Source of the DNA: a virus | Taxonomy: Duplodnaviria; Heunggongvirae; Uroviricota; Caudoviricetes | Reading direction: 5' to 3' (one strand) | DNA length: 39,130 nt | IMG/VR virus record: IMGVR_UViG_2563366972_000008 | Span: 1 to 39,130 of that record | Part shown: piece by piece, positions 1,943 to 27,176 of the stretch | How positions within the stretch are numbered: position 1 is the stretch's first letter | Layout of the letters: every line of letters starts with the position of its first letter | Notes under the pieces: model-generated | What the model saw: the letters and a program-made list of their open reading frames with translations, nothing else | Told to the model about the DNA's origin: nothing | Database searches by the model: none | Position numbers and translations under genes: made by a program

Positions 1943-4900
1943 TCAACGAATACTGATGCCGGAAGCGGCTTTTTTGGTCACAATCACCGTACAGTCGGTG
2001 ATATTGCCTGCCCCCTGATTGCCTTTCTGGAAAATCTTAAACTCCAGAGTGACGCTTCCCCTGCCACTCGGCATATCAATAACTGCACTGTAACTACCGG
2101 GAATGGCCCCTTTAGTTTCTCTGGATGCGATTAATACGCCGTTTTTGCGAACTTCAAAACCATAACCCGTGTATCGCGTGCCTCCTGGGTTATTTCCGCT
2201 CCCCGGATCGTCATACGCTATACCGTTAAAAATAATGGGCGGAATAATAATCTGGCGGTCAAAGTTATGATCATCGCTGATGGTGACTGTAACCGTACCG
2301 TTTGGTGTTTCCGTGTTACCCCACGTACCGACTTTTTTCGGGAAGGCTTTTGATACAGCTTTAACGAAATCTCCTCTGACCTGGGTCGCCTCCAGCATGC
2401 CCTTAATCGTACAGTTCTGGTTAATCGTGACATTGTTGAGCGTTCCTGAGTTCGCATTCACACTGCCACTGATATCCGCATTTTTCGCCGTCAGTCTCCC
2501 GTCTGATGTCAGGGAAAATGCCGGAGGATTACCGCCGCTGGTAATGGTGGGGGCCGTCAGGCGTTTCAGGAACACTTCATTCATGAATATCTGATCGCCC
2601 TGACCAACAAACATCGGCTTTGTGTTGCCATTCGCAGGATTAATCATCGCAATCCTGTCTGCTGCCAGCAGCACCTGACTCTGCATGCCGTCAGGGGTGT
2701 TCTCAATACCGGCACCGATACCCGCAATATAAAGGCGTCCGTCCTGCATCTGCTGCAGCTTCACTGCCCACATGCTGTTCAGGTTATTATTTGTATCAAC
2801 CTGAACCTTCTGTATCTGCTGGATCGCTGCACTCTGGTCTTCCAGTTTCTTATTGACGGTCTGTGTTATTTCATTGCTGACATCCGTTATGGACGTCCTG
2901 ATTTCAGTCAGGTCAGGCGCAAGCTGACCGTTATCAATCTGCGTCCACAGCTCCTGAGCCAGATGGGTTTTCCCTATCTCGCCTTTGAAAAAATCCAGAT
3001 AGCCTGATGCATCATCACTCGGCTGACCGACAGCCTCCACGAATGCCGATTTGCCAACGGTGTTCACACTGCGAACGTAAAAATAATAATCATGGCCCGG
3101 TTTGATATTGATACTGGCGGCTATCCAGTACAGTGCCGTACCAAGATAACGCGCGCTGGTTTCAACCTGCCTGATATCCGCAATCCGTTTTTCCGAGAAC
3201 CAGAACTCAAACTGTACCGTCGGGTCATAAACCGCAAGATGCGGCGTGGCGGTTATCTGAAAATAGCCCGGTGTCAGCTCAATCCGAGACGGCGCTGCCG
3301 GTGCGGCAATCCGGAACGATACCGATGCCGGATCGCCCTGCTGTCCCCACGCATTTACCGCCCGGACTGTCAGCCTGTAGTTCCCCAACGCCAGTTGTGT
3401 GAAGCGGTATGTGGTTTCCGTCGTCCGGGCCGTGCTGACCAGCCGCTCACTGCCGTCGTCCGCTGTTACGGTCAGACGGAGCAGGAAGCTCACGCCCTTC
3501 ACCACCTTCGGTGTGTCCCAGCGCGCCAGCACCTGATATTCCCCGCTGTCTGCGGTGACTTCGGCAGTCAGGTGCTGCACCGCTGGCGGCGTGACACCAT
3601 TCACCGTGCCGCTCTGGTCGCCGTCAAAGTGCGCCCCGTTATCCACGATGGCCTCTTTTTCCGGCACATGCTGCACGGCAGTGATGGCATACGTGCCGTC
3701 GTCGTTCTCACGGATACTCACACAGCGGAACAGGCGCTGGCGCAACGTCGGCAACTTCAGCCCCCACACGCTGTATTCAGCAACGCCGTCAGGAACACGG
3801 CTCACTTTCACCTTCACGCCGTCGGTGACGGACTGGACCTCCACGCTGACCGGATTACCACCTCCGTCAACCAGGCTTATCAGCGTGGTGCCGGAGGATG
3901 GCAGCGTGATTTCACGGTCGAGCGTCAGCGTCCGGGTCTGGCTGTTCACCGCCAGCACGCGCCCGCCGGTGCTGATACCCGCATAGTCATCATCGCAGAT
4001 TTCAATGACATCCCCCGGTACATGGCGAAGCCCTTCCGCACCCACGCTGAAGTCCACGGTCTGCGTTTCCAGCAGTTCCGTTTTAATCAGCCACAGCCCG
4101 GCGCGGTGCGCCTGCCCCCGACTGGTACAGCCAAAGGCATCCATCTTCGTGACGTTACGACCGTAACGGGCAATGGCCTGCGTGTCCTCCACAAGCTCTG
4201 TCGCCGTCTCCCAGCCGTTATCCGGGTCAATCCAGTTCACCTCAACGGCATTATGGCGGTCCTTCAGGGCGCTGAAGCTGTAGCGGAACGGCGCGCCATC
4301 ATCCGGCATCACCACATTACTGCGGTTATAGGTCCACACCTTATCCGACGGTCGGTCCTGCACAAACGTCAGCGTCTGCCCGTTCCATACCGGCATACAG
4401 CGCATCGCCGAGCAGAAATCACTGAGCACATCCCACGCCTTACGCTGTGTGGTCAGGTACGCATTACAGGTGATGCGCGGCTCCGTGCCGCCAAAGCCGT
4501 CCGGCACTGACTGGTCGCAATTCTGGCCGATGACATACAGCGCCCATTTATCCACATCCGCCGCACCAAGACGTTTCCCCATGCCGTAGCGCGGATGGGT
4601 CAGCATATCCCACAGACACCAGGCCATGTTGTTGCTGTATGCCGGTTTAAACGTTCCGTCCCAGATACCGCTGTATTGCCGCGTCTGCGGGTTATAGTTC
4701 GACGGCACCTGCAGAATACGCCCGCGCAGATGATAATTACGGCTCACCTGCTGGCTGCCGAACTGCTCCGAATCCACCTGTACGCCGACCAGTGCCGTGT
4801 TCGGGTAGCACTGTTTCACATCGATGATTTCGGTGTATGACGACCAGAGCGTTTTGTTCTGCAGCTGGTCTGTGGTGCTGTCCGGCGTCATCCTGCGCAT

Positions 4901-7517: not shown

Positions 7518-7873
7518 CAGTGAGTGACCTCTTCAAAGGTACAGTTAAAATCGGTATACATGGCATTATCCGAAATGCTCCACTCCCTGCAGACAACCCG
7601 GACAGTCCTGTTGTGTTTTGGCGGACGCCACAAAAAAGCACGAATCCCGGCATGACGGGATAAAAAACTGTCCAGCGCGGCACGGGAATATTCATCTGTG
7701 ACACGAAATACCGGTTTAAACGTTTTCAGATCCGCATTCAGACCACCAGCCCGTCGCTGTTCATATCCGTCACCAAACTTTACCGTAATAACTGATGGCT
7801 TTCGTGTCGTCTCCATCCCCTCACGGGGGATCCAGTTAAAAACTTCAGGCTCAGGCACTGTACAATCCTCCAT
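7517..7873 (-). CDS. M: Minor tail protein M
   Basis: Conserved FNWIPREGM...VKFGDGY resembles lambda M. Start uncertain: ATG 7873 fits the alignment, ATG 7816 has the better RBS. Confidence 0.7.
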   Translation of the reverse strand: MEDCTVPEPEVFNWIPREGMETTRKPSVITVKFGDGYEQRRAGGLNADLKTFKPVFRVTDEYSRAALDSFLSRHAGIRAFLWRPPKHNRTVRVVCREWSISDNAMYTDFNCTFEEVTH

Positions 7874-10800
7874 CCCGACGCGATGACTGCATAATTGACA
7901 CAACCCTGCTGTCGATCAGATCCACCAGTCCCCTGGCTGAGCGCGCATCTATCTCGCCATTGCTCCCTTGATTCTGAATGCTGATGTGATACACGGGAGA
8001 ATAAACAAATCCACCGCCACCATTCACATTTCCAATGGCCCTGACCCCAAGAGAGCCGTCCGCTGCCCGTGTCAGTGGCATGATTGCTTCAGGCCCGGCC
8101 TCGCCCATCAACCCGGCACCTTTCGCAAAAGCAAAATACGTCGGTGTATCCACAATAGTGTTACTGTAAGCACTCAGATTTGCCGATGTGTAAACACCAC
8201 CTTTTGCGTTTGCCACTGCCCCCGAAATCCATCCGCCGACCGTACCAAGCCACCCTCCGGCACCGGAGAGTGATTTCAGTCCGTTAACAATGGCTGCATT
8301 CATCAGAATTTTTGAAACTTCCCGGAGAACTGAACTCCCCCAGTTCCTCCAGTCCACAACATTCCCGGCCAGTGCATCGGAAATATTTGATACCAGCCCG
8401 TCCATCGTGGAAACGACAGCATCTGCCGCCTGTGAAGCATAATCGGTGGCACTGTCTGCCCAGTTGGTCAGTCCCTCCTGGAGTCCGGCATTCCAGTTAT
8501 TACGTAAAGCATCGGCCTTTGCATAATAATCCTGCTGATCGCTGAGACGCTCTTCCAGATATTTTTTATTCAGTTCTTTCTCCTGTTTCCACAGGGCTTC
8601 TTCAATTTCTCCGGCCTGATACTGTCTCAGCAGCTCGTTATTTTTCTGCTCAAACGCCTGCCGGATACTCCACATTTCCTGGAGTCGTTCACGCATCCGT
8701 GAGCCTTCACCATATCCCAGCAACTGCGCTTCGTCAGATGCCCGGGCACTGGCATTACTGTCCGCCAGACTGCTCTCATACGCAGCAAGCTGCTCACGAA
8801 TCTTTTTCTGGTCGATGAGTGCTGCATTCTGCAAAAGCGTTTTTTTCTGCGCTTCTGACAGGGTTGATAATTCGCCCTGACTGACCTGATATTTCATCTT
8901 AGCCAGTTCAGTATTCTGCCCTGCCAGTGCTATCTGCTCTTTCTGCTGTTTAATCAGCCGTTTATAAATATCTTCTGTTTTTTCCGCTTCGGTCTTTTTA
9001 TGCGCTTTGGGTTTATTTGCCTGGTTATTTCGCCATGCATCCAGTGAATTATTAATATAATTCAGTCTTGCTGTCTGATATGCCTCTCCCACAAAGCCGA
9101 GATCATCCGCAGCATAACCCAGGCGGGCACGCTCACGGGCTTCCCCCTTCAGGCGGGACAGAGCCAGTTCGCGCTCGCTGTTATTCAGTGCTGTCTGCTG
9201 TTTATCATCCAGGGTGGCCTGTGGCAGCCGTAATGGTACATTCACCAGCCCCTGACGCTGCTGAAGTAACTCATTACCAAGCCCGAGAAGGTGATTAAAC
9301 TCAGTGTACTGACCATTCATGATCAACAGGGACTGATACGCTTTATTTTGCTCCGCCGCCTGTTGACGAATCAACGCCACCCGTCGCTCCTCCAGCCCGG
9401 CAAGCACATCCTGAATGGATTGCGCTTTGCCCTGCATTTGAGTGAGGCGAGACTGTTCAACTGCCAGTTGATTTGTTGCTTCTGCAAGCCCTTCTGTGAC
9501 AGTTTTTACCGACGTCATGTGGTTAATCATAAAACCGTTATCGGTTGTCCAGCCCGGGTTTGCCAGCACATACTGATAGCCAGCAATTTTTTCCTGTAAG
9601 GATTTAATCTTACTTTTCTGCTCGTCAATTAACCTGTTTTGCTCATCAAGTGCCTGCCGCGTCTTTTCCTCATTATCTGACGCTTCAGGAAGCGACATTG
9701 CCGACGTTTTCTGGCGAATTTCGTCGATTGTTGCGGCATACTGGCGTGCAGATTCTCTGGCCTGCTCCTGATTCTGATACATCGTGTACCAGGCCGCGGC
9801 TCCCAGCATGACAAGCCCCGGCACACCCCCAACCAGCCCCAGTGCCCCACTTAACAAACGGCTCCCCACTGACGTGACAGTATTCAGCGTTGTCTGTGCT
9901 GCTGTTCTGGCCGCAATATTACGGGTAAGTGATGCCTGGGCAGCAGCCAGTTTCGCTTCTGCGGCTGCCTGCCTTTCTGTACCACGGGTAGCCACAACTG
10001 CCTGTTGCGCACGATAAACCGCCGCACGCGCCCTGGCTGTTGCTATCTGTGTCCCCCGGAGTTGCGCTTCCGCAAGAGCCACTTCGTTTCTGGCTGCAGT
10101 AATTAATCCGGCAGTTGCAGATCCAGCAGAAGACGCCATATTGCCAAAATATCGGGCTACCCCGACGGCAACCAGAGCACCGGCAGCGGTTGCCACGGTG
10201 TCAATATTGCCTGCAATACCATTCAGCACACCGGAGAGCGTCTTCGTCACTCCGCTTGCCTCGTTCGCACCACCAACCCAGGCCATAAAGGCGTTTTCAA
10301 CTTTGGTTGCAGAGGATGAAACCGTATCAGGCATTGCCGCATATTCATCACGTAATGCCCCAAGCTGACTAATCAGTGCAGGAACAACCTTATCGGTGGT
10401 CAGTTTTCCGTTATCCGCCATGGCCTTCAGATCCTTACGGGCAACACCCATTCCCGCAGCCAGCGCACGAATAACACGATCGCCGTTCTCATTCACCGAG
10501 TTAAACTCTTCACCGCGCAGCACTCCCTGCGCCAGTGCCTGACTGAACTGCGTGATCACCGAACTGGCTTCTGCTGTACTGGCACCGGATAAATTCAGGC
10601 CCGTGGAGATCGCCTCGGTGACTTTCAGTACTTCCTCAGAACTGTAACCATACTCCCGCATGGAAGCTGCAGAACGGGCAAAAAGGCGTGCGTTATCAGA
10701 AAACGCCGTCCCCGTTTTCTGGCTGATCGCCATTAATTCACGCTGTGATGCCTGAAAATCATCACTGGACTGTGAGGCCTGCTTCAGACGGGCATTTACT

Positions 10801-21522: not shown

Positions 21523-21738
21523 TTACTCTCCCCGTGCAGCCTTACGCTTGTCTTCTCTGATTTTGAAGTACAGATTTGTCAGATAAGTCAGGAAGCCCAG
21601 AACCAGACTCCCCAGTACACCAATCGCAGCCCACTGTGAAGGACTGACCTGATCAAGCCACTGTAAAAACCAGTAGCCAGCACTGCCTGCGGAGGTGCCG
21701 TAGGCAATGCCCGTTGAAATTTTGTCCATGGATTTCAT
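21523..21738 (-). CDS. S: Pinholin, S21-like class II holin with dual-start motif
   Basis: 71-aa translation [27 protein letters not shown]... matches phage-21 S as recalled; two TM segments. Confidence 0.9.
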
Positions 21739-22030: not shown

Positions 22031-22105
<75 letters not shown>

Positions 22106-22108
22106 ATA

Positions 22109-22184
<76 letters not shown>

Positions 22185-22186
22185 AC

Positions 22187-22263
22187 TGGACCGCCACCGG
22201 GGACTCGAACCTCGCACACTCAACTTAAAGGGTTGACGCTCTTTCCTGATGAGCTAGTGGCGG
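22187..22263 (-). tRNA. tRNA-like gene with noncanonical anticodon loop CCUUUAA (possibly Lys-UUU; C at position 33)
   Basis: Acceptor CCGCCAC/GTGGCGG, T-arm with TTCGAGT loop and encoded CCA; anticodon loop lacks the usual U33 and the T-stem has one mismatch. Confidence 0.55.
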
Positions 22264-22264
22264 T

Positions 22265-22340
22265 TGGTGGCCCTTGCTGGATTTGAACCAGCGACCTGGC
22301 GATTATGAGTCGCTCGCTCTCACCACTGAGCTAAAGGGCC
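22265..22340 (-). tRNA. tRNA with CAU anticodon, ileX/ileZ-like (Ile2 or Met)
   Basis: Acceptor GGCCCTT/AAGGGCC, anticodon loop CUCAUAA, TTCAAAT T-loop, CCA; resembles the Ile2 tRNA carried by lambdoid phages downstream of Q. Confidence 0.8.
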
Positions 22341-22460
22341 GGGCGCAGGATAATAACGTTACGAAATCAATGTTGCAAGCATTCAAGAATCACCTGGTTA
22401 AAAATTACCCTTACTTCCTCCACCAGCGCATTCACCCTGTCTATCCGAGATAAGTGGCAC

Positions 22461-22487
22461 AAAAAAACCCGCTTGATGCGGGTTTAA
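22461..22487 (-). terminator. Rho-independent terminator; candidate late-operon tR-prime
   Basis: Hairpin ACCCGC-ttgat-GCGGGT preceded on the forward strand by A7, so the minus-strand transcript has hairpin plus U7. Confidence 0.45.
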
Positions 22488-22530
22488 GTTGTGTGGCGAA
22501 GCGACCACTCTTAACAGATTAAGATAGTTT

Positions 22531-22560
22531 TTGCGTACGCGTTAGTGATTTTTTCATAAT
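22531..22560 (+). promoter_or_regulatory. Putative sigma-70 promoter for the plus-strand three-gene cassette
   Basis: TTGCGT, 18-bp spacer, CATAAT, then the first cassette ORF. Confidence 0.4.
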
Positions 22561-22572
22561 TATCTGTATCCT

Positions 22573-23484
22573 GTGGCTATTTCTCTTGCGCAAAGGATGC
22601 TTTTGATGACGCAGCAACTCGAAAACATGCCAATAACAGAAATCGAAATTGCCTACGGTGGAGAGGCATACGCAGATAATCAGATCGACGCGAAAACATT
22701 AGGCGAAGCCTTAACCTCTCTTAGTGCCCTGATTGAACACGCCGAAAAAATAATTAATGGCGAAACAGCAGAGCCGAAAGTCAACATCAAGGCAACAAAA
22801 GAAGGTTCATTTACTTTGCTTGTTGCTGTGATGGGGAGCATAAAAACTATTAACGCCCTTGGCCTCGTTGCAGGTGGTGGAGTTGCCGCAGGTGGCGTAC
22901 TCGGGATAATCGAATGGCTCAAAGGGCGTAAAATCAGCTCCATTGTCGTCGATGAACAAAAAGATACAGCAGAAATCGAAGTGGATGGTGAGAAGGTTAA
23001 ATGCAGTAACGACATTCAAAAATTAATAACCAGTCCAATCATCCGAAAAGAACTGGATAAATTAATCTATAAACCCCTGCAGACTGAAAAACCATCCACG
23101 TTCTCAGTTTCACAGCAGAAGCATAAGGTAGTCAGGGTGACGCAAGCTGAAGCAGTAAGTTTTAAAACTGCAAAATCCACCTTTGTCGAGAAAACGCACG
23201 TAACGACACGCCAAGCTAATGTACATTTTGCTAATGTTCGATTCAAGCAAGGCAAAAGCTGGGATATCATCCTGCCAAATGGCGAAGAAGTTAGCGCATC
23301 TATGAAAGATGAGGCTTTTCTTGAACGGGTTGAACACAACCAAGCAGCATTCTGTAAGGGTGATCTTTTTGTTGTAGAACTGACAGAAACAACAAAAGAA
23401 ACAAATGGCGCGCTGTCTAAACCACGCTATAGTATTACTAAGGTTATACGCCACAGAGCGGCGGCAGATAGGAAACTACTTTAA
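22573..23484 (+). CDS. Hypothetical protein A of accessory cassette: hydrophobic Gly-rich segment plus beta-rich C-terminal domain
   Basis: 303-aa ORF from GTG 22573; likelier start ATG 22606 behind an AAGGA RBS. Segment LLVAVMGSIKTINALGLVAGGGVAAGGVLGIIEWL; AT-rich codon usage unlike flanking phage genes. Confidence 0.7.
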   Translation: MAISLAQRMLLMTQQLENMPITEIEIAYGGEAYADNQIDAKTLGEALTSLSALIEHAEKIINGETAEPKVNIKATKEGSFTLLVAVMGSIKTINALGLVAGGGVAAGGVLGIIEWLKGRKISSIVVDEQKDTAEIEVDGEKVKCSNDIQKLITSPIIRKELDKLIYKPLQTEKPSTFSVSQQKHKVVRVTQAEAVSFKTAKSTFVEKTHVTTRQANVHFANVRFKQGKSWDIILPNGEEVSASMKDEAFLERVEHNQAAFCKGDLFVVELTETTKETNGALSKPRYSITKVIRHRAAADRKLL

Positions 23485-23487
23485 ATC

Positions 23488-23733
23488 ATGTCAATCCTAA
23501 GCATTATGCTTTACATCACTGTATTCATGGCTGTCGCAGCGACGGTCAGATATGCTGTGCTTAGGTTCTTGGTTTGGGTAAAGCCGAATGCGTATATTGA
23601 ACTAACCTACACCGATCCTGAAGGCAGAACCGCTAAAAGGAAAGTCAGCGTTAGAAACGAAAATGACGCAGAAGAGTTGGCGCTACTGCTACGCGAACTC
23701 AAAACTCGCAACGAAGCAAGTGCAGGAAGGTGA
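23488..23733 (+). CDS. Hypothetical small membrane protein B of accessory cassette
   Basis: 81-aa ORF starting 4 bp after gene A stop; one N-terminal TM helix then a charged tail. Confidence 0.6.
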   Translation: MSILSIMLYITVFMAVAATVRYAVLRFLVWVKPNAYIELTYTDPEGRTAKRKVSVRNENDAEELALLLRELKTRNEASAGR

Positions 23734-24120
23734 ATGGCGAACACTAAATCCTACCTGGCAATGCAGGCATGGTTTACCACCCTTATCACTGCGGGATTGA
23801 ATTTCCTTTTTGACTGGCTTCCTCAATTAGCCTTCTTCAAATCATTGGCGCCTGGAGCTGCTGTCGGCTTATCTCATGTGGTAATTCTTCTTATCGCTTA
23901 CATAGGTTTGCCTACGCTTAATGATGTAAGAATGAAAAGGGAAATAAAAACGGCCAGAAAATTCATCACGAACTGCCTGGCCAACCCTAACCTAACACCA
24001 GACCAAATTGCGCACTACAACCAATGTCTTATCGATCTAGACAATAAGCTATTAAAAAACATAAATATTCGTATTGATGCTTTATCTGACGCCGAATCGA
24101 AAGCTCAAGCAGACGAGTAG
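23734..24120 (+). CDS. Hypothetical membrane protein C of accessory cassette
   Basis: 128-aa ORF; ATG immediately follows the gene B TGA (TGAATG) with GGAAGG RBS; two predicted TM helices then a soluble helical tail. Confidence 0.65.
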   Translation: MANTKSYLAMQAWFTTLITAGLNFLFDWLPQLAFFKSLAPGAAVGLSHVVILLIAYIGLPTLNDVRMKREIKTARKFITNCLANPNLTPDQIAHYNQCLIDLDNKLLKNINIRIDALSDAESKAQADE

Positions 24121-24133
24121 TAACAGTCATAAC

Positions 24134-24493
24134 TTATGATAGAATCAAGCATATACATCCATCAATAAAGCCTAATGCAGTTTGCAGCTCCTTTCTTATA
24201 GTTCCATCTGAGCACCTGCGTTTCTTCGCGATTGAGCGTAGAGAAACACCAATAACAAAGTGAGCTATGAGCAGCTCATATTCCTCTGGTTTATACTTTC
24301 GCAACCGAGCCACACAACCGTCTATCATGATGCCTTCATCATCATCACACTGGAGACGTGACTTTTTGCCATGTGGCAAAAGCCCCTTGAAGCCCGCTGC
24401 TATCGGTTGCCAATCGACACCGCTATTTTCTGCTGCAGCCCATGCCCCCCAGCGATCTAAAACCTCATACATATCACGCCCCATTACCATCAC
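24134..24493 (-). CDS. Q: Late-gene antitermination protein Q (Q82/QuuD-like)
   Basis: Translation ...LDRWGAWAA...IAAGFKGLL...RLQCDDDEGIMIDGCVARL...CSDGTIRKELQ... resembles the phage-82 Q family as recalled. Confidence 0.85.
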   Translation of the reverse strand: MMVMGRDMYEVLDRWGAWAAAENSGVDWQPIAAGFKGLLPHGKKSRLQCDDDEGIMIDGCVARLRKYKPEEYELLIAHFVIGVSLRSIAKKRRCSDGTIRKELQTALGFIDGCICLILS

Positions 24494-26732: not shown

Positions 26733-26885
26733 TTAACGTTTTTCAACTTCGTAGGCTAAATACGCTGAAAGCTCTGTGTTTCCCTGCCTGATGTGCAGCT
26801 CGCATAGCGAACCGCGAACCATCCAGACAAATATCAGAATGGTGATGCAAACCACCACCAGACAAAACACATAGCTCCTTCGCAT
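26733..26885 (-). CDS. hok: Hok/Gef-family type I toxin
   Basis: 50-aa ORF (absent from the ORF track) found by hand translation: MRRSYVFCLVVVCITILIFVWMVRGSLCELHIRQGNTELSAYLAYEVEKR; one TM helix plus the conserved LCE motif; AGGGGG RBS. Confidence 0.75.
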   Translation of the reverse strand: MRRSYVFCLVVVCITILIFVWMVRGSLCELHIRQGNTELSAYLAYEVEKR

Positions 26886-26943
26886 TACAGCCCCCTGTTA
26901 GTTGATTTCTTACTGTTAAGAGGCTAATCTTTATGTGTCGCAT
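26743..26943 (-). CDS. mok: mok-like overlapping reading frame
   Basis: 66-aa ORF overlapping hok in another frame and starting about 60 nt upstream, as in hok/mok/sok loci. Confidence 0.45.
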   Translation of the reverse strand: MRHIKISLLTVRNQLTGGCNAKELCVLSGGGLHHHSDICLDGSRFAMRAAHQAGKHRAFSVFSLRS

Positions 26944-27176
26944 ACAGAATGCCTCAGATTAATGTTAAGCGTCTTGCCGGACGCGTAATGTTAACTGGGG
27001 CTTTTCTCTATCTGCCGTTGGTGTTCATGCCCGAGGCAGATAGCCTCAAGCACCCGCAGCAATTCTACTTAACTCTCCTTTTCCCGCAAACCGTTTTTAT
27101 CCCCAGCGGCAAATCGAATACACCACCAGCGCCACCGCCATCGCAATTCCTACCGTTGTGAATGCTTCAGGCCAAG

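Follow-up and report, generated by a model that had tools for sequence, protein, structure and literature searches.

A mobile three-gene prophage cassette of Escherichia coli as a probable variant of the mycobacteriophage gp29/gp30 defence

A three-gene cassette between Q and the tRNA genes

We looked at a 39,130-nucleotide stretch of viral DNA (class Caudoviricetes, IMG/VR record IMGVR_UViG_2563366972_000008, positions 1 to 39,130; hereafter the window), which contains the larger part of a lambdoid prophage in minus-strand orientation, and within it at an accessory cassette of three plus-strand genes, called here A, B and C. This trio is flanked by the antiterminator gene Q and a block of tRNA genes, both on the minus strand. 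A preliminary description of the window had placed three tightly coupled plus-strand open reading frames (ORFs) between Q and the tRNA/lysis region, opposite to the prophage, and the ORF calls agree. The cassette and its genes are the following:

22560-24126, plus strand: accessory cassette, a 1567-bp block missing from a relative with a 95%-identical Q
22606-23484, plus strand: gene A, gp29-like, PDC-S42/'LAPAL' family, 292 amino acids (aa)
23488-23733, plus strand: gene B, 81 aa, matching phrog_27630 (E=8e-57)
23734-24120, plus strand: gene C, 128 aa, matching phrog_26468 (E=2.5e-88)

B starts 3 nt past the stop codon of A, and the ATG of C abuts the TGA of B. C and Q are convergent, with stop codons 13 bp apart. 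The sizes first given for B and C and their abutting junction stood. The size given for A, 303 aa from GTG 22573, had to be changed, as this codon has no Shine-Dalgarno sequence and is not the start chosen by PGAP. ATG 22606 has an AAGGA Shine-Dalgarno sequence 8 nt upstream, is the PGAP start and is the point from which all homologues align, and A most likely begins there. The lower GC content announced for the cassette was confirmed: the 1567-bp insert has 43.3% GC, against 51.0% for the window, falls in the lowest 1% of windows of the same size and is the stretch poorest in GC.

Gene A and gp29 of mycobacteriophage MichelleMyBell

A profile built from 91 sequences of the A family was compared by hhalign with gp29 (310 aa) of mycobacteriophage MichelleMyBell. 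The two aligned with a probability of 99.1% (E=1.1e-18) over 272 columns, covering residues 9-298 of gp29, and pairwise BLASTP of the window A against gp29 gave E=5e-7. RexA, used as a negative control, reached a hhalign probability of 0.1% against the A profile. Furthermore, gp29 matched the PDC-S42 model of PADLOC (E=1.6e-16), as did the window A (PDLC05015, E=3.3e-53, profile positions 4-294 of 302, covering residues 22-299 as numbered on the 303-aa GTG ORF). These comparisons indicate that A is a full-length homologue of gp29. The same name was given by the depositors of a Vibrio PM2-like prophage, who labelled its A homologue 'MMB_gp29_gp30__gp29'.

Dedrick and colleagues reportedly described gp29/gp30 in 2017 as a prophage-mediated defence of Cluster N mycobacteriophages, and DefenseFinder calls the system MMB_gp29_gp30. 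The gp30 gene encodes 67 aa with two transmembrane (TM) helices and overlaps the end of gp29. The pair is described as a prophage defence of the abortive-infection type that lets the infecting phage adsorb and inject its DNA (PMC6426606); gp29 is reported to be toxic and gp30 to be a membrane protein, the mechanism being unknown (PMC11856565).

The window A also scored 225.3 bits, for a cutoff of 60, against NCBIfam NF053583 ('LAPAL motif-containing putative phage structural protein') and strongly matched phrog_3243. PDC-S42, NF053583 and phrog_3243 are one family, of which the window A is a strong member by all three models. The PDC-S42 model was matched by 91/91 sampled family members, and the motif that reads LAPAL in distant members is LGEAL in the window A. 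An exhaustive profile search gave 2917 clusters at 50% identity, nearly all of about 290-320 aa, and a further profile search, based on the 91 aligned sequences, brought up mainly the close relatives already found. The PDC systems of PADLOC are candidates without phenotype tests, and PDC-S42 was nominated because its genes are embedded in BREX, DISARM or type I restriction-modification loci. The earlier statement that none of the three proteins belongs to a known defence family was therefore wrong for A. We found nothing in the literature on PDC-S42, the LAPAL motif or the protein and family accessions, and no S42 entry in the portion of the supplement of the PADLOC 'embedding' preprint available as text.

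Pfam scans of A, B and C returned sub-threshold noise only. EACC1 (PF19953) was considered for A and rejected: it gave one weak match (E=0.018, 15.5 bits for a cutoff of 23.6) and was found in 0/91 family members at E<=0.01. DUF7946, for which we found no literature mention, matched the N-terminus weakly in 28/91 relatives of A and was uninformative. A search of the PDB with sequence profiles of A gave no relative, and a structure search of BFVD with A gave uncharacterised phage proteins, one of them from a Cluster N mycobacteriophage. In a separate observation, a 357-aa metagenomic protein (P0028) was found to carry a 95%-identical part of A fused to a QueH-type domain (PF02677). Related prophages encode QueH at another site, and this protein is therefore probably a chimera of assembly or gene calling.

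The structure of A was predicted with AlphaFold2 (pLDDT 77 over the full length, 88.6 for residues 1-190). In the model, N-terminal and middle domains of the alpha/beta (ferredoxin-like) kind are followed at about residues 195-284 by an OB-like beta-barrel. The preliminary description had predicted all three products to be membrane proteins and had noted in A a Gly-rich hydrophobic segment. This segment is a low-confidence part of the first modelled domain of A; its Gly/Ala-rich hydrophobic stretch (residues ~82-104) peaks at 1.97 on the Kyte-Doolittle scale, and the insertion energy, crudely estimated, is about +1.8 kcal/mol. The peak is kept in the A family, often weaker, and in gp29 the energy is about +5 kcal/mol. 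B and C remain predicted membrane proteins; for A, a clear assignment as a membrane protein is not supported, its single segment being marginal and less hydrophobic in many relatives. The residues that are invariant or nearly so in the family are only L32, G67, G86, R147, P157, W219, D235, F238 and V280. As these residues are few and none is of a catalytic type, the alignment argues for a binding or oligomerising protein rather than an enzyme.

Insertion of the cassette next to a conserved late element

We compared the window by BLAST with a cassette-free relative (NZ_CP082077, strain MS20657, locus L045). There, an 82-bp element directly adjoins the stop codon of Q; in the window, positions 22560-24126 lie between the two. 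The features at the two junctions are:

22465-22559, minus strand: backbone element after Q, with 91% identity over 82 bp (22478-22559) to the sequence directly after the L045 Q
22554-22559: left junction repeat TCATAA (TTATGA on the minus strand), the 6 bases by which the two BLAST segments against L045 overlap
24127-24132: right junction repeat TCATAA, 1 nt from the Q stop codon
22531-22536 and 22555-22560, plus strand: candidate sigma-70 promoter TTGCGT-18-CATAAT, read from the sequence

The 6-bp repeat was considered as a target-site duplication. This is unsupported, since the repeat is not conserved in more diverged carriers, and it is probably microhomology. The 82-bp element, being contiguous with Q in L045, is assigned by this comparison to the prophage backbone. 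A strong intrinsic terminator (22485-22465) closes the element, and a core block of it is invariant in five carriers. Most plausibly, it represents a Q-dependent late promoter/terminator unit (pR'/tR'), and it may hold the Q-utilisation site and the late promoter of this Q family. A search of its minus strand gave no convincing pair of sigma-70 hexamers, and the pR'/tR' assignment is for this reason a putative one. The core, which is perfectly conserved, was also seen to carry an 8-bp palindrome, GCGTACGC, and there is a GTGG...CCAC hairpin ahead of the terminator.

A sigma-70-like promoter of its own had been proposed for the cassette. We found that this candidate matches 8/12 consensus positions, with only 3/6 in the -35, and that it lies below the threshold of a consensus promoter scan, which itself was no richer in sites in the window than in shuffled sequence. 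Moreover, the candidate is a hybrid: the -35 belongs to the backbone element, and the -10 straddles the point of insertion. The block holding the -35 is invariant in the five carriers, and the -10 varies (CATAAT, CATGAT, TATGAT, TAAAGT) with A2 and T6 kept. The claim of an own promoter is thus weakened to that of a candidate. No plus-strand terminator was found after gene C (24118-24136), so that a cassette transcript would run antisense into Q, RusA and DUF968. Conversely, the rightward/early transcription of the prophage runs antisense through the entire cassette, and the two could silence each other in the lysogenic and lytic states.

In L045, the interval between Q and the holin gene (1991-3277) encodes a scabin-related ADP-ribosyltransferase and a subtilase-family AB5 binding subunit, an ArtAB-like toxin. 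Since different cargo is found there, this comparison shows the slot to be a cargo hotspot for this Q type.

Distribution and contexts of the triad

We looked for the triad among gammaproteobacterial carriers with enough downstream sequence. At every locus with a close or moderately distant A, down to 23% identity, A was followed by coupled ORFs of the sizes of B (79-90 aa) and C (124-139 aa). The carriers belong to Enterobacterales, Pasteurellaceae, Orbaceae and Vibrio. The cassette of the window was present in 37/5426 complete E. coli genomes and in 37/276 of the genomes that have this Q family. Its distribution is thus sporadic, and it is not conserved at this position in most prophages with this Q family. 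A second E. coli variant, with an A 52% identical, is found between hok and DUF968 within the nin region and runs in the direction of the early operon (4/5426 genomes). The arrangement of the window, with the cassette convergent with Q and upstream of the lysis genes, recurs with a Q that is 82-90% identical and also with a Q at 42-44% and an A at 37%, which indicates from the divergence of both genes that this arrangement is old and stable.

Elsewhere the neighbourhood changes. In lambdoid prophages of Pasteurellaceae, the triad is directly downstream of cI and co-oriented with it, in the position of lambda rexAB. (The cI-A-B-C order is followed there by further likely defence cargo, namely an Abi_alpha family protein and an RNase_T-family exonuclease; L043 9654-10541, L042/L043 ~7700-8744.) The triad is also found in a Serratia island and on a small MobA plasmid contig. 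In the Vibrio PM2-like (Vinavirales) prophage PQ189332 (L051, 4004-5608), the A homologue is followed by ORFs of 83 and 161 aa, only marginally B-like, beside the integrase. Because a PM2-like element carries an A homologue, the cassette is seen, on this comparison, to cross between viral realms. More distant A homologues stand alone: they were found on an island of P. aeruginosa, where the neighbours are a BrxR-type WYL regulator and an SNF2 helicase, in Paraburkholderia and Melainabacteria and on about 30 Pseudomonas megaplasmids. Such a spread over unrelated mobile elements, unrelated virions included, speaks for accessory cargo of use to the lysogen and against a part in lysis or virion structure. 

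A function in the lytic cycle of the carrier phage itself, either as a module that modulates the holin or the timing of lysis or as a structural/assembly factor, has to be weighed against these contexts. The genes often adjoin lysis genes: between Q and the holin in the window, directly before the holin and a transglycosylase in Mu-like prophages of Orbaceae, between endolysin and integrase in Lactobacillus phage A2 (a stand-alone A), and after the lysin, the holin and gp28 in MichelleMyBell. In size and topology C is similar to class II holins, NCBIfam calls A a 'putative phage structural protein', and in the Halomonas Mu-like prophage CP032147 (L047, 7001-7945) a stand-alone A lies between the Mu G-like (Phage_tail_S) and Mu protease genes. 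The latter placement probably explains the NCBIfam label, and the same gap holds anti-CRISPR genes in Pseudomonas Mu-like phages. However, slots near lysis genes are usual sites of accessory genes too, the window cassette is transcribed opposite to the late operon, and most prophages with the same Q family do not have it. Homologues next to the BrxR-type regulator, after cI, within the nin region or on plasmids are away from lysis and virion genes, and tailed phages share the family with a PM2-like virus, whose virions are unrelated. In addition, no holin, spanin or structural family was matched by A, B or C. The label 'structural protein' thus appears unsupported by the genomic contexts seen, and the lysis-timing modulator that had been offered as one plausible role is weakened by the loci far from lysis genes. 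Of the explanations considered, we take a role in the phage's own lytic cycle to be the least probable.

The occurrence on both plasmids and prophages bears on another alternative, a toxin-antitoxin-like addiction or stress module that stabilises its mobile element, in which A would be the toxin neutralised by B and C, with no direct anti-phage role in this host. It agrees with the reported toxicity of gp29 (PMC11856565), with the tight coupling of the three genes and with the presence of hok/sok nearby in the same prophage. Nevertheless, stand-alone A genes are common, which is unexpected for a toxin that would have to be neutralised, and the homologous system does defend against phages. We hold such a module to be very unlikely; many toxin-antitoxin modules also act as abortive infection, so that it overlaps with a defence role of that kind and does not exclude it.

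Genes B and C

Hydropathy and an alignment of 18 carriers were used to describe B and C. The N-terminus of B forms one clear TM helix; Pro33 is invariant, and the tail, which is cytoplasmic, is a short beta/helix segment. C has a weaker hydrophobic helix at about residues 8-30, a clear TM helix at about 41-59 after the invariant Pro40, and a C-terminal amphipathic helical tail. The single helix first counted for B was therefore right, and of the two counted for C one is clear and one weaker. Neither protein matched Pfam or PADLOC, and neither matched a holin family in Pfam, PHROGs or NCBIfam, so that the holin/antiholin homology that might have undone the cargo proposal did not appear. RexB as a relative of C was rejected (hhalign probability 2.5%), and so was gp30 as a relative of either protein (0.2% for the B family profile and 0.6% for that of C). 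B was also seen to be un-annotated in the RefSeq/PGAP record NZ_CP135706 and skipped in several gene calls on other contigs.

Against carriers that are ~84-89% identical in nucleotides, dN/dS was 0.04-0.08 for each of A, B and C (0.06-0.08 for B and 0.04-0.07 for C). Given these low values and the A-B-C order kept down to 23% identity of A, the three are real genes under strong purifying selection.

Two small inner-membrane proteins beside a protein with an OB-like barrel could also make up a superinfection exclusion system. B and C would be its membrane part, and a tethered A would bind incoming DNA through the OB-like domain, so that entry would be blocked at the inner membrane, as is done by P22 SieA, T4 Imm and Charlie gp32. 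The positions used for lysogen cargo, directly behind cI included, suit such a system. Against it, gp29/gp30, the only characterised homologous system, is described as acting after adsorption and DNA injection (PMC6426606), a membrane partner is missing altogether from many A homologues, and A offers one marginal hydrophobic segment that its relatives do not keep as a TM helix. Exclusion at entry is therefore quite unlikely in our estimation.

Surroundings of the cassette in the prophage

The order of the prophage is integrase, early region, hok/sok, DUF968, RusA, Q, four tRNAs, holin, lysozyme, Rz/Rz1, terminase, and head and tail genes. The features that frame the cassette are:

24134-24493, minus strand: antiterminator Q (PGAP: antiterminator Q family protein)
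22031-22340, minus strand: four prophage tRNAs (Ile2/Met-CAT, Lys, Thr, Gly), between the cassette and the lysis genes and outside the cassette
21523-21738: class II holin of the prophage itself

The first tRNA is called Met(CAT) by ARAGORN and Ile by PGAP (a lysidine tRNA of the ileX/ileZ type). A promoter-like sequence with a good match, TTGCAA-17-TATTAT, lies just upstream of the four tRNA genes (22350-22378, minus strand). PGAP also annotates a 36-aa 'antiterminator' (WP_086259018.1, 22398-22508, minus strand) that crosses the intrinsic terminator and is probably a spurious or remnant gene call. The 145 bp at 22341-22485 are conserved in about 970 E. coli genomes, Stx2 phages included. In the nin-like region, 26733-27055 on the minus strand holds an ORF for a toxin of the hok family (26733-26885) together with a sok antisense RNA (Rfam RF01794, 93.7 bits).

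A probable abortive-infection cassette

Altogether, A is homologous to gp29 and a member of PDC-S42, and the cassette is mobile and found behind cI in Pasteurellaceae. On these grounds, we consider that 22560-24126 is most likely a mobile cassette carrying a three-gene gammaproteobacterial variant of the gp29/gp30 defence, which probably acts by abortive infection. The exclusion or abortive-infection cargo guessed at in the preliminary description is thus the reading favoured by the evidence. Its novelty had been overestimated: this kind of system is already known from gp29/gp30, and the A family is already listed as a defence candidate.

The homology, conservation, mobility and positions described above are observations; how the cassette might work we infer. 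The slots that it occupies are those used for cargo expressed in lysogens. The cassette would be transcribed in the lysogen from the weak promoter at the left junction, antisense to the late and read-through transcription of the prophage. A would be the non-enzymatic sensor and toxic component, and its OB-like C-terminal barrel might recognise a product of the infecting phage. B and C, in the place of gp30, would either restrain A or localise it at the inner membrane. Once activated, the complex would compromise the membrane or otherwise arrest growth, and the infecting phage would fail after entry of its DNA.

Several points weigh against this defence reading. The identity of A to gp29 is only about 20-22%, and the phenotype of gp29/gp30 is known here from secondary descriptions (PMC6426606, PMC11856565). 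B and C have no similarity to gp30 by hhalign, so the partnership may differ; many distant A homologues stand alone, and B and C may be accessory. The promoter on which lysogen expression would depend matches the consensus weakly. We found no published experiment on the cassette or on any PDC-S42 member outside mycobacteriophages. Finally, the NCBIfam name points to a structural protein, and one homologue does lie inside a Mu-like head-gene cluster.

A wider proposal, which we put forward as rather unlikely, is that gp29/PDC-S42 is a widespread non-enzymatic sensor-effector with interchangeable membrane partners (none, gp30, or B and C). The E. coli triad would then be a membrane-depolarising abortive-infection machine, analogous to RexAB and unrelated to it, and its conserved placement, convergent with Q and back-to-back with the late-promoter element, would give the prophage self-immunity, since read-through and Q-dependent transcription at induction would pass antisense through the triad and switch it off.

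What these comparisons bring is, first, the identification of PDC-S42 and the 'LAPAL' family with the gp29 family, which joins two defence resources: the family listed by PADLOC as a single-gene candidate is that of the gp29 component of a mycobacteriophage defence shown to work. Second, the partners B and C look obligate, and a three-gene form with two conserved small membrane proteins, partly missed by current annotation since B is un-annotated, appears to have been overlooked. Third, an E. coli lambdoid carrier was found, with an insertion placed exactly between Q and the putative late regulatory element; this version could be a tractable model for the trigger and the killing mechanism of a family of about 2900 clusters. 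The misleading family name 'putative phage structural protein' can also be corrected.

Comparison with known systems

The closest known system is gp29/gp30. A and gp29 are alike in size (292 and 310 aa), in both systems the large protein is followed by one or more immediately coupled genes for small membrane proteins, and both occupy, close to the lysis genes, a temperate phage's variable slot for accessory genes. They differ in that the window has two partners, B with one TM helix and C with one or two and a helical tail, where MichelleMyBell has gp30 alone. Moreover, the host of the window is Gram-negative, and its cassette, known from sequence alone, is in opposite orientation between Q and the late region. 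In PADLOC, PDC-S42 is defined as a single-gene candidate, whereas A in the window and in related gammaproteobacteria has two obligate-looking partners outside that model.

Class II holins and antiholins resemble C in being small, with two hydrophobic helices and a charged C-terminal tail, near lysis genes; the cassette differs from them in its opposite strand, in its occurrence far from lysis genes and in the presence of a separate class II holin. Lambda RexA/RexB, the RexAB-like gp30/31 of Sbash and gp43/44 of CarolAnn share the overall plan, a cytoplasmic protein of about 280-340 aa with one or more small membrane proteins, expressed from the prophage. The Pasteurellaceae cassette matches lambda rexAB in position as well, being downstream of cI and co-oriented with it. 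This likeness is without homology, since hhalign gave 0.1% for A against RexA and 2.5% for C against RexB, and DUF4747, the family of RexA, was matched neither by A nor by any of the 91 members of the A family.

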